Shown here: piece by piece, positions 7,675 through 48,260 of the stretch | Position numbering within the stretch: position 1 is the first letter of the stretch | How the letters are laid out: each line of letters starts with the position of its first letter | Virus record (IMG/VR): IMGVR_UViG_2571042390_000001 | Length of the DNA: 64,000 nt | Source: a virus | Taxonomy: Duplodnaviria > Heunggongvirae > Uroviricota > Caudoviricetes | Strand: one strand, 5' to 3' | Made by a program: the position numbers and the translations under genes | The notes under the pieces: generated by a model | Seen by the model: the letters and a program-made list of their open reading frames with translations, nothing else | Told to the model about the DNA's origin: nothing | Database searches by the model: none

Positions 7675-7899
7675 ATTAATTTGCTGTTTCTAAAACGGAA
7701 TGTATGATCTGCATCATCGACTGAAGTCATCCATTGCTGAAATTTTTAGTTGATCTTCCATGTTTTCAGGCTTATATTCATGCCGTCGTAGCAAATTCTG
7801 CGACCGGGTTTGACAGCCTGAATGTTAGTGCGGACAACCGCAGATTTCCGATATTGCGGTATTTTTGTGTCCGTAAACCGCGTTACGCCCGAATTATGG

Positions 7900-8000
7900 T
7901 GGGGCGTGATGGGGAGGCTTCGGCCTGCTGGTTTCACTAACGCCAGTCTGTCAACCCTGTCACGTCCTGCCACCTGTTTGACAGCGGGTGGCAGGTTGTT
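7900..8000 (+). ncRNA. Candidate c4-like antisense regulatory RNA (immI type), copy 1
   Basis: Non-coding region before icd-like gene; hairpin about 7966-7995; segments about 7921-7926 and 7935-7941 complementary to RBS region about 8007-8019. Confidence 0.35.
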
Positions 8001-19857: not shown

Positions 19858-20509
19858 TGTGTTAGAAATCTAAAATCACAATTCGAATGTATTGATTGTG
19901 AAGATAACTTAACATAGAATTTTCCTTGCTGGTGGGCGGTACCCACGTTTCGCTTGCTGGGCTTGATAGTCACTTATTGGTTATTGTTCGCCCACCAGCA
20001 TTTAACAAATTAAAGTGTTAGAAATGTATAGTAATGCAAGAGCACGCTTTGGCACCGTGCAGGCCAAAGTTCAGCAGGTTTAGTGCGGAAAGTGGTTTCA
20101 GAGAGAGCACTTTGCGGAGTAAACGACAATACATGTTGAGCCACGGAAGGTCTTTTTAAGGTGTTCATTGATGATGGTCCGGCAGAGAGTAACGGTACAT
20201 GCTGCATCTAATCATCAATGCACATCTTCAACATTAAGGAGGCATAGGGATTTTTGTGGCGGTTACCTTTTGCCCTGAGTCTCCTTAATGTTGCGGTAAT
20301 GCACCTATGCGGATGTGGCCTTGCATTGTGTCTTGAAAGAATGGGGTAAGGCCGGGGATATCCCCAGGGGGAGGCACCCCCGCTGCAACGAACAGCCACA
20401 GACGGCAGTCGAGTGATGGAAACGTGTAAAGACTTTAAACCTCGTTACGGCTGGCGTGGCAAACGCGACAACCGAGACAGAGCGGTGACGGGCGGAGAGA
20501 GTGCCGCAT

Positions 20510-20631
20510 CAAGAAAGAAGCCGACTTGTGATCCCTTTCAGCGGGCATTTGAAAGTGAATCCAGCTCAGGCAGTCGGCTTCTTTCTTGTGTGAGATGTAG
20601 CGTATTTGCCCATCTTCGGGTGGGCTTTTTT
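20510..20631 (+). ncRNA. Candidate structured small RNA (long hairpin plus intrinsic terminator)
   Basis: 17-bp stem caagaaagaagccgact/agtcggcttctttcttg with nested hairpin, then gcccatc/ggtgggc stem and T6. Confidence 0.3.
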
Positions 20632-21092
20632 AGGGTTTTCGTCATGGTTAGCGACTTTGCGGCGGTTTAGAAACTGACCATTAAAGTAAATGCAAACGAT
20701 GATCTGATGATGGTAGCGGCCTAAGAAGCCAGACGCCACGGGGTATGAGTCGTCCCCCGTCAAAAAAATCGACCGCAGAGTGTCCCCGTCTGTGTATTAG
20801 GGAACGGGGAGGCATAACAGGCAAGGGCGCTGGTGTGATTAACCAGATGAATGAGAAGGGTCAGGTCTTTCTGGTCAGCGCCCTTACCTGTTGCGTCCTT
20901 CCCGCGTAACAGCCATTGCTTAATGGCATCCTGGGAGAACTTCTTGTAACGGGTATATCCCGTCATGCTGAAGGCGCTAATCACGCTGGAAGCCAGGGTT
21001 GTGCATCCCCTGTTACCGAATTGCAGCCAGGGCGCGGTGCGCCGAAAAGCATACGGAGGTGGAAGCCCTCGCCGGAGACGTACCCGGCAAGT

Positions 21093-21167
21093 GATGGTGT
21101 AGCTCAGCGGTAGAGCAGTTGGCTGTTAACCAACTGGTCGGTGGTTCGAATCCACCCACCATCGCCA
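21093..21167 (+). tRNA. tRNA-Asn (anticodon GTT)
   Basis: Cloverleaf: acceptor GATGGTG/CACCATC, T-arm GGTGG-TTCGAAT-CCACC, anticodon loop CTGTTAA, 3' CCA. Confidence 0.8.
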
Positions 21168-21172
21168 ATTTA

Positions 21173-21259
21173 GGGGAGTTAGTCCGTAGGGGTAGCGGGG
21201 TAGACTGTAAATCTACTGTCATTGCGACTCGGGTGGTTCGACTCCATCACTCCCCACCA
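21173..21259 (+). tRNA. tRNA-Tyr (anticodon GTA), long variable arm
   Basis: Acceptor GGGGAGT/ACTCCCC, anticodon loop CTGTAAA, type II variable arm, 3' CCA. Confidence 0.7.
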
Positions 21260-21263
21260 AATT

Positions 21264-21339
21264 GCCGGTTTAGCTCAGTTGGTAGAGCAGTCGCTTTGTA
21301 AGCGAATGGTCAGCGGTTCGATCCCGTTAACCGGCACCA
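21264..21339 (+). tRNA. tRNA-Thr (anticodon TGT)
   Basis: Acceptor GCCGGTT/AACCGGC, D-arm TAGCTCAGTTGGTAGAGC, anticodon loop TTTGTAA, 3' CCA. Confidence 0.8.
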
Positions 21340-21408
21340 ACACAACAGGTAAGAGCATTTGTAGAGTTCGACTCTCTACCGTGGGCTTTTTCCCGCGATG
21401 CGAGCCAT

Positions 21409-21439
21409 AAATGCTCTTACCGTTGTGATGAAGTGCAGC
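21409..21439. repeat. tRNA-array-associated repeat, copy R1
   Basis: aaatgctcttaccgttgtgatgaagtgc; 3' strand of a long hairpin that follows tRNA-Thr. Confidence 0.4.
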
Positions 21440-21650
21440 TCTTTGAAGCAACCAGAAGATAAGCATCTGGCTTCACAACATAAACCGCAGGAACGACCAA
21501 TAAACGGTAGTCCGTATGGAGAACACCCCGTTGAGGAAGAGGTCTGGCCGGAACCGTAACCGGCACTACAACGTTGAGAACACTGGCGTAACGGGGTCAT
21601 ATCCCAATCTACGAATAAATGTTGCGTTGCAGCGTGACAACCAGTGTTCT

Positions 21651-21674
21651 CAACATTGTGGTGAATGCGCAGGC
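21651..21674. repeat. tRNA-array-associated repeat, copy R2
   Basis: caacattgtggtgaatgcgcaggc; preceded by inverted repeat gttgagaacactgg/ccagtgttctcaac. Confidence 0.35.
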
Positions 21675-21793
21675 TGATGCGCGAAAGACATTGCAGCTAT
21701 TGCGGAAAAGAGCTGTTCGGCGGGGCAATTAAACGCCCGTGAGAGTCTGAAATAACCGCAAGCCGGAGATCAGCACCGGTCGCCACAATAACG

Positions 21794-21880
21794 GGAGAGT
21801 AGGGAGCATGGTGCTCAAGCGGTCTTGAAAACCGTCCCATTGCGCAAGCGATGATGGTTCGATTCCATTACTCTCCGCCA
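21794..21880 (+). tRNA. tRNA-Ser (anticodon TGA), long variable arm
   Basis: Acceptor GGAGAGT/ACTCTCC, anticodon loop CTTGAAA, type II variable arm, T-loop TTCGATT, 3' CCA; position 8 atypical. Confidence 0.6.
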
Positions 21881-21974
21881 GTGCAACATTAAGGGTATTT
21901 GGCTAATTAAGCGAATGCCGGAAGCAGAACCGGATCACCAAATGCGTACAGGCGTCATCGCCGCCCAGTCAGCC

Positions 21975-22004
21975 AAATGCTCTTACCATTGCGGTGAATG
22001 CGGC
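21975..22004. repeat. tRNA-array-associated repeat, copy R3
   Basis: aaatgctcttaccattgcggtgaatgcggc; follows tRNA-Ser. Confidence 0.4.
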
Positions 22005-22171
22005 TAAGCGCACGCGGAACAGTTAAAACAGTAAAGGTGGTCTTTTTACTGGCGTAACGAGAATCCATAAGTGATCCGGCGTTAATTGTTAACTGGTTAA
22101 CGTCACCGGGAGGCGCCCGGCACCGCAACCTAACAGCAATGGCGTTTTGTCTTAAAAGGTGGCTGCAAGTG

Positions 22172-22300
22172 ATGGATTTTTGGGCGTTTGCCGATAAAAA
22201 CCCGGAGTGGACATTATTGTTTCTGCTGGTGGTTGCATACGGGGTAGAGCAAGCGGCAAAAGCCTTACGCGGTTCTGGCAAAAAGCGTAAGCGTAATTAA
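22172..22300 (+). CDS. Small hydrophobic ORF (42 aa) inside the tRNA cluster
   Basis: AGGTGG RBS 8 nt upstream of ATG; predicted TM segment WTLLFLLVVAYGV and basic tail; below track size cutoff. Confidence 0.25.
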   Translation: MDFWAFADKNPEWTLLFLLVVAYGVEQAAKALRGSGKKRKRN

Positions 22301-22309
22301 CAGTAATCT

Positions 22310-22385
22310 GGCCCTTTAGCTCAGTGGTTAGAGCGGGCGACTCATAATCGCACGGTCACCGGTTCAAGTCCGGTAGGGGCCACCA
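22310..22385 (+). tRNA. tRNA-Ile2-like (anticodon CAT; may read AUA after lysidine modification, or be tRNA-Met)
   Basis: Near-identical in outline to E. coli ileX-type tRNA: GGCCC(T)TTAGCTCAGTGGTTAGAGC ... CTCATAA ... GGTTCAAGTCC ... CCA. Confidence 0.75.
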
Positions 22386-22607
22386 CATTTGGTTGTAACA
22401 CGGCGTATGGCACATGCGTCGTTAGCGGTCTGGTGTAGCTGTTAGGTACCTTTTACTAACACTGCATGGGCACACCAGGTAGCCGGAATGTGCAAGCCCC
22501 GTTCATAGCGTCGGACTGCGGATTCACCATCCTGGCGATTCGGTGTGACAGCCGGAAGAGCACGGCGCACAACAGGAAAAGGCGTTTAATTAGCGTGAGC
22601 GCCGTTT

Positions 22608-22633
22608 CCGTTGTGGTAATTGCGGCTATGCGC
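22608..22633. repeat. tRNA-array-associated repeat, copy R4
   Basis: ccgttgtggtaattgcggctatgcgc; downstream of tRNA-Ile2. Confidence 0.35.
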
Positions 22634-22837
22634 TCGTGACGAAGCCATTTTCATTCACTACGTTCTGATAAGTGACGTCGCCAGGAGTGGCTAACCTGGC
22701 AGGTGGAGGCACCACCGCCACAACTCCTTTCAATTCATCATATAGCCGCTCAGGCTGTACCCCTTAATTAATACGAAGTTACGACATCACTACCGGTACT
22801 TCCGGGGGATAGTCGCGCGTGTAAAAAAGGAAACGTT

Positions 22838-44697: not shown

Positions 44698-44969
44698 TTG
44701 GTTTTCTCCTGTCTGAACATCACTATCATCAGGTCGCCTTTTGTCGCTATTCTGGCTGTTGTGCCTGGTTCAATGCGGCTAAGTTCAAATGCGTCATAGA
44801 ACGCTTCTAATGCCTTCTGGCGTAGTTCCTGTTTGCGCCGTTTTTTCCACTCTTTTAGGAAAATGGAACCCAGCCATCGCCAGGTACGGGACATGATGTA
44901 AAGCCAACCAAGAAGTGCCAGACCGGTATTTAGGGCCGTATCGAGCGTTATCGTGGTGTCGATATTCAC
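44694..44969 (-). CDS. Small membrane hypothetical protein
   Basis: Predicted TM segment LALLGWLYIM. Confidence 0.3.
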   Translation of the reverse strand: MNIDTTITLDTALNTGLALLGWLYIMSRTWRWLGSIFLKEWKKRRKQELRQKALEAFYDAFELSRIEPGTTARIATKGDLMIVMFRQEKTK

Positions 44970-47497: not shown

Positions 47498-48091
47498 TTT
47501 TAAGTTGAATTGAAAAACTCTCCGATGTACATTCACTACCGATTGGCACACCGGTCAACTTTTTGAGACAAACTGTTTAGTTTTTCGTATTATTGCCTCC
47601 GCCATACCTATGGCGGTGCAATATAGGTGGCTGAAAAGCCCCCGTTGACTCACGGTGTTCCAGCCTTTATTGCGCCGCCACCAGACCGTGGAACAGTCGA
47701 TGGCGGCTCCGAAAGCAAGGAGTCACAACACTATGAACAACTACAGTCTTTTCCCATCACTCGTCTTCCACCACTCACGCGATAATCTGCATTCTTTGCT
47801 CGCGCCGGGGGTGTCAAAATGACTGTTCGCTACCTCAACTTTCAAATCAAGAACATTACTGGCGGTTGCTATGACTGGTTTGTCACTCTCGGAAAAGAAG
47901 TGATCACCGGGAAGCTGGATGAAGTGAAAGCTAAAGCAATGGCCTACGCCTGCAAGCAAGTCAGGAAGAAATCCGCCAAAGCATAAAATACTGACTGTTG
48001 CGCCCTGGCATTATCGTGGGGTATATTTCTACGGCACCTTAGAAAAACGGGTGCCGGGATTGGAACCCCGGATAATGTCAAAGGCGACACA

Positions 48092-48113
48092 GACGCCGAA
48101 CGCGTCTTTTTTT
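48092..48113 (+). terminator. Rho-independent terminator
   Basis: gacgc/gcgtc stem followed by T7. Confidence 0.5.
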
Positions 48114-48149
48114 GTGTCATGCCATCGCACAGCCATACTTAGCGTTTAG

Positions 48150-48260
48150 CTCAGAGATCAATGGTAGTGCTGGCTGGGCTGCCGAAAGGCAGGCCGGTTC
48201 CCTTTGACGCCGGTAGTTCCAACCCAGTCAGTGCTACCGCCATTGAGATTGGAACCTCAC
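48150..48260 (+). ncRNA. Candidate c4-like antisense regulatory RNA, copy 2
   Basis: Segments at about 48187-48191 and 48200-48206 complementary to RBS region of icd-like gene 2 (about 48280-48294). Confidence 0.35.

Follow-up and report, generated by a model that had tools for sequence, protein, structure and literature searches.

What do the repeated hairpin sequences between the transfer RNA (tRNA) genes of a P1-family phage represent? The question is raised by a stretch of 64,000 nucleotides (nt), below called the window, from the IMG/VR virus record IMGVR_UViG_2571042390_000001 (Caudoviricetes), which holds a cluster of five plus-strand tRNA genes and their spacers at positions 21093-22633. 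In an initial annotation of this region four related spacer repeats (R1-R4) were recognised, three of them (R1, R3 and R4) as the 3' strands of long hairpins, and it was suggested that the repeats may be processing or termination signals, or remnants of the duplications that built the array. The repeats and the hairpins were both recovered. A repeat search returned R1, R2 and R3 as direct-repeat family D3 (21409, 21642 and 21975) and R3 and R4 as family D4, and the matching 5' arms were found as family D5 and as the inverted pairs I1, I2 and I5. R1-R4 form only the 3' third of a larger unit, and each repeat is the junction between a long hairpin, module H, and a second domain downstream of it, module S. 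The spacers are four copies of this bipartite H-S structured-RNA unit, all on the plus strand.

Module H: a long hairpin with a conserved base

Module H has a fixed design. Its base CACAAC/GUUGUG is followed by a bulged A, then by two pairs, an internal 1x1 loop and roughly ten further pairs, which enclose a variable interior. H1 (21341-21427; arms CACAACAGGTAAGAGCATTTG and CAAATGCTCTTACCGTTGTG; -44.4 kcal/mol, z -6.0) contains a GC hairpin in its loop, together with a T-arm-like stem-loop (GTAGAG-TTCGACT-CTCTAC). The latter had been noticed before and does exist, at 21361-21379 and so slightly to the right of the place first estimated for it, within the H1 loop. The 5' end of H1 is identical to phage lambda 44787-44805 over 19 of 19 nt, and H1 and the lambda H hairpin agree in 62 of 93 aligned columns. 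H2 (21564-21663; arms CACTACAACGTTGAGAACACTGG and CCAGTGTTCTCAACATTGTGGTG; -57.8 kcal/mol, z -6.0) corresponds to inverted repeat I2, which is 91% complementary, and it is conserved in P1, where it lies within the annotated open reading frame (ORF) plp. H3 (21883-21992; -49.3 kcal/mol, z -2.7) contains G-U pairs, and its loop at 21905-21968 is 98.4% identical to lambda 44866-44929. H4 (22568-22615; CACAACAGGAAAAGGCG...CGCCGTTTCCGTTGTG; -32.6 kcal/mol, z -1.7) is a short version of the hairpin, covered by direct repeats D4 and D5 and conserved in phage D6 and D6-like plasmids. H2, H3 and H4 show the same closing helix and arm pattern as the lambda hairpin at 44787-44862.

The original description, in which the Thr, Ser and Ile2-like tRNAs are each followed by a repeat, holds for H1 and H3, which start 2-3 nt past tRNA-Thr and tRNA-Ser; it is loose for the tRNA with the CAT anticodon, as H4 starts 182 nt past it. 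R2 has no tRNA in front of it, as was also described. Directly 5' of H2 lies a small CCGG hairpin (CCGGAACCGTAACCGG; 21548-21563, plus strand). The sequence CCGTAACCGGCAC before H2 resembles the 3' end of tRNA-Thr and was considered as a tRNA remnant. This candidate was rejected: in many phages S domains likewise end with a CCGG hairpin followed by CACNACAAC, and tRNA models gave no match before H2 even at E = 10. H4 is preceded by segment D (22387-22567, plus strand), a structured spacer that is found directly before an H-S unit in other phages and is 79% identical to phage mEp460 (L010, 2263-2437). T-loop-like GTTCRANNC motifs lie within H at 10 of 88 viral sites, compared to a background of 0.027.

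Conservation of the H structure was analysed in an alignment (A1) in which the two arms of 56 different H copies, taken from unrelated contigs and from the window, were joined by GAAA. With the 5' arms located by best duplex, standard pairs fill 93.1% of the cells, and two-sided changes are found in 14 of the 18 H pairs. None of 500 shuffles matched the observed values, and sliding one strand by 1-3 columns left 30-61% pairing. At columns 21-42 the pair seen most often is U-G (35 of 56 copies), and G-U pairs occur at other positions. Since such pairs would be A-C mismatches on the other strand, the H structure belongs to the plus-strand transcript. Contigs L028, L130, L111 and L101 have wholly different arm sequences that are still complementary. 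Furthermore, the 3' arm of a locus binds its own upstream region at -17.05 kcal/mol, compared to -12.76 kcal/mol for foreign, dissimilar arms.

Module S: the downstream domain

Module S begins within the 3' arm of H, where (G/A)UUG(U/C)GGUG pairs with CACC(A/G)CAA(C/U) 60-140 nt downstream. One and the same GUUGUG is needed for the basal helix of H and for the S closing helix, which thus compete for it. The domain is closed by GUUGUGGUG/CACCACAAC and contains two conserved hairpins; its interior runs from an AAU junction over the first hairpin and a variable middle to the last hairpin. The downstream complement is present for all four repeats of the window, and each S domain on its own folds accordingly. 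S1 (21422-21479) is a short domain, closed by GUUGUGAUGAAG and CUUCACAAC; the enclosing stretch 21412-21485 shares 82-85% identity with non-coding DNA from Sashavirus and P22-like phages. S2 (21655-21789; -44.8 kcal/mol) is the canonical form, in which closing helix P1 is made by AUUGUGGUG (21655-21663) and CGCCACAAU (21781-21789), hairpin P2 by GCGCAGGCUGAUGCGC (21667-21682) and hairpin P3 by GCCGGAGAUCAGCACCGGU (21762-21780); it ends 4 nt before tRNA-Ser. S3 (21989-22128; -50.0 kcal/mol), with closing helix UUGCGGUG/CACCGCAA, resembles the small RNA STnc100. S4 (22610-22724; -42.4 kcal/mol) forms the closing helix GUUGUGG/CCACAAC and has a last hairpin of the STnc100 type (GGUGGAGGCACCACC).

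In the wider family CACCACAA was found within 300 nt at 77 of 88 viral sites, compared to a background of 0.19. The five bases before GGUG occur in 44 variants among the genome sites. For 31% of these sites an exact complement of the site's own nine bases lies at most 330 nt downstream, while for foreign variants the value is 0.3%; a tolerance of one mismatch raises these values to 58% and 7.7%. Covariation of the S closing helix extends over Alpha-, Beta- and Gammaproteobacteria. Also conserved is the last hairpin, GCCGG-AGAUCAGCA-CCGGC, for which pairing in fixed register was found in 57 of 90 distinct ends compared to 0-3 after sliding. The core of its loop (UCAGC) and the GCUGA in the loop of the first hairpin are complementary to each other. 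No covariation was obtainable for such a loop-loop (kissing) interaction, both loops being near-invariant in the collected sequences; family members were gathered by exact words, and the invariance of those words is by selection.

The module ends are C/A-rich and of the CACAACA type (21341-21347, 21781-21789 and 22568-22574), and the cores of the repeats are G/U-rich and of the GUUGUG type (21422-21433 and 21655-21663). Both kinds of string presumably resemble the target consensus of the small RNA GcvB (CACAACAU), as well as the GcvB R1 seed, which we regard as a lead only. The prophage small RNA AgvB has been reported as a GcvB mimic.

Distribution and genomic context of H-S units

The initial annotation had made conservation of the repeats in relatives a test of its proposal, and the units were indeed found in D6, D6-like plasmids, P1 and beyond. 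BLAST searches with the spacers alone gave matches in many unrelated phages. S2 together with the spacer before tRNA-Ser has 95-99% identity with early-left leaders, namely those of mEp460 and of Shiga toxin 2 (Stx2) phages, and the segment after the CAT tRNA matches mEp460, Stx2c and podovirus lambdoid phages. In mEp460 the latter segment, an H and an S2-type domain are contiguous, with operator-like repeats after a CI-like repressor gene on one side and a strong terminator before the first early-left gene on the other. Lambda (J02459; L011, 1122-1276) has one complete H-S unit at 44787-44941, immediately 3' of tR' and overlapping the end of 'orf-64'. Its H (44787-44862) is followed by an S (44857-44941) with a compensated closing helix, GUUGUGCUG/CAGCACAAC. 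P1 (NC_005856) harbours three H-S units between tRNA-Thr and tciA (L001, 1769-2338; positions 69472-70041 of the record). Exactly over these three plus-strand units lie two minus-strand ORFs, upl and plp (a 'putative lipoprotein' that overlaps tRNA-Thr at its 3' end), which may be annotation artefacts. Small hypothetical ORFs also lie across the H-S leaders of mEp460 (gp36 and gp37, on the opposite strand; L010, 2218-2771) and phage Tyrion (gp54; L012, 2444-2605); by the same argument they are probably spurious.

An exact-word scan of IMG/VR with TTGTGGTGAATGCGC gave at least 120 matches, and the extended motif was present in 100 among the matches listed. The P2 core of S2, as an exact 23-mer (GGTGAATGCGCAGGCTGATGCGC), occurs in 102 stretches of species-representative genomes. 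Among these are genomes of Enterobacterales, Pseudomonas, Marinobacterium, Salinicola, some Alphaproteobacteria and many Burkholderiales, including Massilia, Janthinobacterium, Achromobacter, Comamonas and Polynucleobacter; a few matches in metagenome-assembled genomes of other phyla may be binning errors. Among 5426 complete E. coli genomes, 1107 contain DNA like window positions 21560-21793 (H2/S2), which is annotated in none of them. The regions between Q and the holin gene of the K-12 cryptic prophages DLP12 and Qin contain no H or S unit.

Flanking proteins of sampled sites revealed two recurrent contexts. In the first, S lies 3' of CI-like repressors (helix-turn-helix plus Peptidase_S24), in early-left leaders; in the second, in late leaders, it has a Q antiterminator (PF06530, PF03589) on one side and a holin on the other. 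In Betaproteobacteria the recognisable neighbours, judged by eye, are RecT-like or terminase genes. The orientation of S always follows that of the flanking genes and tRNAs. At 43 of 60 viral sites S is followed by a terminator-like hairpin and T run, at a median distance of 69 nt (quartiles 52-81), compared to 2 of 45 in a control stretch and 10 of 60 on the opposite strand, as scored with a home-made detector. A terminator shortly after S is the usual build of a free-standing small RNA gene.

At 12 of 88 viral sites and at 13 of 102 genome sites a tRNA gene lies no further than 600-800 nt away, nearly always on the strand of S. A count of nearby tRNAs gave 13 of 16 on that strand. Outside the window, too, tRNA-Ser or tRNA-Asn begins 3-10 nt past an S domain in some contigs, and in contig L041 the 3' end of tRNA-Ser plus UA continues straight into an S core. 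In Massilia sp. TS11 (L136, 4485-4793) an S whose 23-nt core is identical occupies exactly the spacer that separates tRNA-Gly from tRNA-Pro, which is the same tRNA-S-tRNA arrangement as in the window.

Relation to detected small RNAs

The H of lambda coincides with an RNA that has been detected. LPR2 is an Hfq-bound RNA of ~63 nt from the lambda late operon, beside 6S RNA, which is found mainly during the lytic phase and has PreS and fliC as partners (bioRxiv 10.1101/2024.10.31.621285). The northern probe for LPR2 (Table S5 of the same preprint) maps to lambda 44816-44850, within H at 44787-44862. Lambda H minus its 6-bp basal helix measures ~64 nt, so a cut at the bulge would give an RNA of the size of LPR2 and, in addition, a free GUUGUG for S. 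By homology in sequence and structure to lambda 44787-44862, H1-H4 are classed as LPR2-like modules. The S part of the lambda unit is not described in this preprint, which applied the sequencing of interacting RNAs after their ligation (RIL-seq) to lambda.

The S module can likewise be related to known small RNAs. S3 aligns with the Rfam family STnc100 (RF02076; 39.1 bits at a threshold of 47, E 2e-7, model positions 31-147 of 206), and the alignment covers the same closing helix and hairpins. The architecture of STnc100, consisting of a GGUG/CACC helix, an AAU junction, a first hairpin and a terminal CCGG-type hairpin, was found in the cmscan alignment of S3, in the folds of S2-S4 and in the family-wide conservation. 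STnc100 and PasD have both been reported as prophage small RNAs, detected in pathogenic E. coli and Salmonella, PasD by Hfq RIL-seq with northern validation in enteropathogenic E. coli. PasD lies near Q and STnc100 lies 3' of stx2, both in prophage late regions.

Other known elements fitted less well and were rejected. The main S type matched no Rfam family in the window or in the mEp460, lambda, Tyrion, Massilia, Achromobacter and Polynucleobacter loci (E up to 10 over the array and up to 0.05 in seven other loci). Y RNA (YrlA), transfer-messenger RNA (tmRNA) and other tRNA-like families gave no match over the array or these seven loci either. A full-text search of the literature library used did not find the H or S motif strings. 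A single-stranded nut or rrn boxA (CGCUCUUA / UGCUCUUUAACAA) followed by a boxB hairpin was considered, as UGCUCUU(U/A) is present in most 3' arms, but there it is base-paired, and in several members this arm is replaced together with a compensating 5' arm. A hammerhead core (CUGAUGA...GAAA) at GGCUGAUGCGCGAAAG was dismissed as well: Tyrion and EPP-1 do not share the GAAA, and A9 is a C. The consensus of integron attC sites (RYYYAAC / GTTRRRY) is partly fitted by CACAAC / GTTGTGG, and no integron integrase was found among the annotated neighbours in relatives.

A proposed processed array of tRNAs and small RNAs

We give roughly an even chance to the reading that tRNAs and RNAs of the LPR2-like and STnc100-like kinds alternate along one co-transcribed array and are cut apart from each other by processing, while the repeats double as recombination points. 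The region would then be one long, mostly untranslated part of a plus-strand operon in a D6-like plasmid-prophage. Its cassettes would consist of an H of ~50-110 nt, belonging to the LPR2 family of lambda, and an S of ~60-140 nt with a closing helix of 7-10 bp and at least two hairpins. The whole array would be transcribed from an upstream promoter. H would be the first to fold, because its 5' arm is made first. Maturation of the tRNAs, by RNase P at the 5' ends and by RNase E or exonucleases at the 3' ends, would cut beside each tRNA, and an endonuclease would cut the base of H. RNase III is the obvious candidate because of the 18-22-bp stem with fixed internal loops, and the original suggestion of a processing signal is plausible for H to this extent. 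Loss of the basal CACAAC/GUUGUG helix would free GUUGUG for the closing helix of S. The predicted products are tRNAs, free hairpin RNAs and S-domain RNAs, of which the latter two may be stable small RNAs acting on host or phage transcripts, associated with Hfq as in the cases studied. An S left at the 5' end of an mRNA (tciC, orf6-like genes) would also protect the mRNA downstream.

Several points weigh against this reading. Co-transcription, cleavage and accumulation are all deduced from sequence, for the window and for every array of the P1/D6 type. None of S1-S4 is followed by a terminator or U-tail, so that the 3' end to which Hfq usually binds is missing; S2 alone has an obvious site for 3' processing. 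The STnc100 score of S3 falls short of the threshold set for this family, and no Rfam family is matched by S1, S2 or S4. Locating the 5' arms of A1 by best duplex inflates the percentage paired, a bias that is met only partly by the comparison of own and foreign arms. An exact 23-nt core in Alpha-, Beta- and Gammaproteobacteria is above what is normal for the scaffold of a base-pairing small RNA, and hints at binding to a conserved host machine. Finally, LPR2 and STnc100 themselves have no assigned function.

Alternative explanations

The conserved core leads to the main rival of the processed small RNAs, namely that S is a cis-acting leader RNA of operons, either an antiterminator like the put RNA of HK022, which would bind RNA polymerase and let it resist terminators and Rho, or a riboswitch-like sensor acting on the terminator that commonly comes after S, with H as an accessory or insulating element. 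We judge this improbable, but to be taken seriously. A 1.7-kb untranslated tRNA array before protein genes would need a polymerase resistant to terminators or Rho. S opens operons in which terminators have to be read through, after CI-like repressors and between Q and holins. The S domains of mEp460 and Tyrion lie between promoter- or operator-like sequences and a strong terminator before the first gene, and in some contigs a promoter-like sequence (TTGACA-17-TACATT) stops a few bases 5' of the S core. The terminator-like site that follows S by 50-80 nt at 43 of 60 sites fits this explanation too, and identity of the 23-nt core in three classes of Proteobacteria is what would be expected for docking on a conserved enzyme. 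The closing helix with two hairpins and complementary GCUGA/UCAGC loops resembles compact aptamers, and S is of a size like put (PMC9378689). However, S has no sequence similarity to the HK022 putL region. In late operons it comes after tR' and thus meets a polymerase already modified by Q, for which a second antiterminator seems unnecessary. In the window S1-S4 have no terminators behind them. The two conserved hairpins are separated by anything from 6 to over 150 nt, an unusual spread for a ligand pocket, and the loop-loop pairing gave no covariation. Moreover, the related PasD accumulates as a discrete Hfq-bound small RNA and STnc100 is described as a small RNA.

In a more specific form, to be held with similar reserve, S would be a new class of cis-acting leader RNAs of temperate phages of Alpha-, Beta- and Gammaproteobacteria, which docks on a host machine. 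RNA polymerase would be the most likely docking partner, making S a second and far more widespread put-like antiterminator for long untranslated or terminator-studded operons, tRNA arrays included; alternatively, it might be a switch that senses a small molecule or tRNA before the usual terminator. If so, STnc100 and PasD would be diverged, free-standing offshoots of the S fold.

It was also considered that the hairpins are mere processing or stability signals for the tRNAs and the downstream mRNA, and that the excised pieces have no function. H1 and H3 begin 2-3 nt past the 3' end of a tRNA, and stems of 18-22 bp with internal loops at fixed positions are like RNase III substrates such as T7 R1.1 and the lambda N leader. 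Structured 5' ends are known to shield RNA from RNase E. On the other hand, most members have no tRNA nearby (76 of 88 viral sites, 89 of 102 genome sites); far more primary sequence is conserved than a stem needs, namely CACAAC/GUUGUG, both loops and the AAU junction; and the H of lambda accumulates bound to Hfq with the specific partners PreS and fliC. We regard this explanation as quite unlikely. As signals for termination, the other role first proposed, the repeats were not borne out: a scan of 21000-22800 for intrinsic terminators found no hairpin with a T run save the H4 stem with a weak tail (GTTTCC), and the total count was not above that of shuffles.

Recombination and the tciC cargo slot

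The array has been subject to recombination. Homology within the P1 family breaks at 21682 (the P2 end of S2), around the R3 island at 21976-22017 and at 22127-22133 (the end of S3), the break at 21682 being that with P1, Ro157c2YLVW and pGMI14. In the Salmonella element pGMI14-002_2 the same modules are present in another order with breakpoints at module edges. The conserved module ends serve as crossover points, acting as recombination points for the exchange of tRNAs and cargo genes because they are nearly identical in many phages. The earlier proposal that the repeats are remnants of duplications holds in so far as duplication and recombination between repeats shaped the array; mere remnants they are not, because copies of the unit are carried by lambda, P1, lambdoid and other phages as well as by the prophages of many Proteobacteria. 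That the repeats are DNA-level linkers or duplication scars, kept by phage recombination and without RNA function, would account for islands of 40-150 nt with 92-99% identity in otherwise unrelated phages, for the breakpoints at repeat edges, the reshuffled relative and the cargo hotspot with tciABC, an SPFH gene or extra tRNAs, but this is very unlikely, as compensatory changes preserve both helices while the sequences diverge, G-U pairs make the structure strand-specific, orientation always tracks flanking genes and tRNAs, and at least one member is a detected RNA, recombination and RNA roles being compatible. Pure processing signals and pure DNA linkers both explain less than a processed array of tRNAs and small RNAs.

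The site at 22127-22133 is a cargo slot, in which relatives carry tciAB, an SPFH gene, a 230-nt piece or nothing. The hydrophobic ORF of 42 amino acids first seen between the last two tRNA genes (22172-22300, plus strand) does exist. By comparison of its translation with P1 TciC and P7 Upf69.6 it encodes a small hydrophobic TciC homologue, identical to P1 TciC in 13 of 35 residues by our own count. As in P1, it lies directly 5' of the CAT tRNA; the closest plasmid annotates it as a hypothetical coding sequence. It is the only remnant of tciABC here, tciA and tciB of D6 being missing.

The tRNA genes and their hotspot

The five tRNA genes first reported were all recovered by ARAGORN at the same coordinates. 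ARAGORN found exactly five, all on the plus strand and with 7-bp acceptor stems and an encoded CCA: tRNA-Asn (GTT; 21093-21167; 75.5 bits with Rfam tRNA model RF00005), tRNA-Tyr (GTA; 21173-21259; 41.9 bits at a threshold of 29), tRNA-Thr (TGT; 21264-21339; 67.2 bits), tRNA-Ser (TGA; 21794-21880) and a tRNA with a CAT anticodon, probably of the Ile2 (ileX) type (22310-22385; 66.7 bits). The gathering score of RF00005 is exceeded by all of these except tRNA-Ser, which in Rfam matched the tRNA-Sec model only (43.5 bits, below the threshold of 47). The Tyr and Ser candidates, whose rejection was to have counted against the initial annotation, were both upheld. They are class II tRNAs, tRNA-Tyr with a long variable arm. 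tRNA-Tyr is found in Ro157c2YLVW and D6-like plasmids and absent in P1, P7 and D6. tRNA-Ser is a homologue of the annotated tRNA-Ser of D6, and is ~87% identical to DNA annotated as tRNA-Ser, -Tyr or -Arg in coliphages of ~140 kb, which we take to be rV5-like. The CAT tRNA is homologous to P1 trnI, which is annotated as tRNA-Ile2 and given by its annotators as 89% identical to E. coli ileX; as an Ile2 tRNA it would carry a lysidine made by TilS.

Upstream of tRNA-Asn, a small hairpin (GCCGGAGACGTACCCGGC; 21071-21088, plus strand) resembles the P3 hairpin of S domains. This leader piece is shared with other phages, as GGTGGAAGCCCTCGCCGGAGACGTAACCGG in viral contig L089 and as CCGGAGACGTAACCGG in Tyrion, where the copies sit 3' of promoter-like sequences. 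The preceding 1.2 kb (19858-21092), from a pmgS-like gene to tRNA-Asn, lacks a convincing ORF. It holds a promoter-like sequence (TTGATT-17-TAGAAT, 19892-19920), copies of GTGTTAGAAAT near 19860 and 20016 that are possibly a D6-type operator, and a strong terminator-like hairpin at 20605-20631. Matches to tmRNA-like Rfam families at 20619-20777, outside the array, are weak and far below threshold. A minus-strand ORF of 74 amino acids (20760-20984), annotated in the closest plasmid as hypothetical protein WP_000622155.1, is of doubtful coding status; it lies in the conserved non-coding leader 5' of tRNA-Asn that is common with P1.

The window shows 99% identity to E. coli plasmid prophages and 91% to phage D6. 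Its array is flanked by D6-type genes, all on the plus strand, with a pmgS-like gene upstream and orf6-, orf5- and lpa-like genes downstream. Because of these identities and neighbours the window is assigned to a D6-like phage within the P1 family rather than to P1. Comparison of homologous blocks with those of D6, P7, P1 and six plasmids or phages showed the synteny of the tRNA-tci hotspot to be present in the window (Asn/Arg-Thr, spacers, tci genes, CAT tRNA and the strand of the flanking operon). At this site P1 has tRNA-Asn, -Thr and -Ile2; P7 has Asn, Thr, Ser (unannotated) and Ile2; D6 has Asn, Thr, Ser and Ile2 (unannotated); and Ro157c2YLVW has Asn, Tyr, Thr and Ile2. The closest plasmids have five tRNAs, Arg (tct) or Asn being followed by Tyr, Thr, Ser and Ile2. 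Four tRNAs had already been reported for D6-like prophages (PMC6799933). The tRNA array is therefore a known variable hotspot of which the five-gene form is one state. The expanded set claimed at first is larger than the three of P1, but it falls within the normal variation of the hotspot known from D6-like relatives, because relatives bear 3-5 tRNAs at the same place.

The operator consensus of the P1 C1 repressor (ATTGCTCTAATAAATTT) gave 0 matches with up to 3 mismatches in the whole 64-kb window. The Pban/Oban arrangement of P1 is therefore not transferable to the window, and the repressor of this phage presumably recognises a site other than the P1 C1 operator. Elsewhere in the window two separate C4 antisense RNA genes were found (regions 7772-7977 and 48034-48244; 77.1 and 68.8 bits). 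One has an a1/b1 target element upstream (7772-7824) and the other is preceded by an isrK-like RNA (48034-48112); these two C4 genes, each with its associated upstream element or RNA, suggest two immI-type antirepressor control regions in one element.

Significance and comparison with known systems

One module with covariation support joins LPR2, STnc100/PasD and the unexplained spacers of phage tRNA arrays. It is unannotated in lambda and P1, the two best-studied temperate phages, and H2/S2-like DNA is present in about a fifth of complete E. coli genomes; the module is found in distant proteobacterial prophages as well. These findings suggest that phage tRNA arrays bear regulatory RNAs besides tRNAs, and they give annotators a reason to drop ORF calls across such spacers.

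The tRNA-tci-ban region of P1, P7 and D6 has Asn and Thr tRNAs, spacers, tRNA-Ser (P7 and D6), tci genes and a CAT tRNA of probable Ile2 type in common with the window, and the shared blocks are 82-97% identical. Unlike these phages the window has an extra tRNA-Tyr and lacks tciA and tciB, and compared to P1 its flanks are pmgS-like and orf6-, orf5- and lpa-like (D6-type) in place of dmt and ban. LPR2 of lambda has the closing helix, the bulged A, the AAGAGCA/UGCUCUU arms and an S domain next to it, as do H1-H4. However, the description of LPR2 is confined to lambda and includes neither a covarying family nor a two-part unit nor a link to tRNAs. The window has four copies of H, with different loops and placed in a tRNA array, which are known here from their sequence.

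STnc100 and PasD resemble the S modules in a 5' (U/C)GGUGAAU, a first hairpin, a variable middle, a CCGG-type last hairpin and a 3' CACC(A/G). The commonest S type differs from STnc100 in its very conserved loops, GGCUGA and AGAUCAGCA, and in a host range far wider than that of the enterobacterial STnc100, and the S copies of the window are without terminators. The put RNA of HK022 is a ~70-nt RNA of two hairpins that causes antitermination without a dedicated phage protein (PMC9378689). S is comparable to it in being a small two-hairpin RNA located, at many of its positions, after early promoters and before terminators. However, S has a closing helix and a variable insert, it is also found after tR' and between tRNAs, and the nun-cI/putL region of HK022 showed no similarity to the window or the mEp460 leader.

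RNAs derived from the spacers of tRNA transcripts have precedents in the tRNA punctuation of mitochondria, in the 3' external transcribed spacer of leuZ of E. coli (3'ETS-leuZ) and in the tRNA cluster of T4, which includes two stable RNAs. In these cases, too, functional RNAs lie between tRNAs in one transcript and are freed by tRNA-processing enzymes. They are unrelated in sequence to the H-S units, and the non-tRNA units described here belong to a conserved mobile family of which most members occur without tRNAs.

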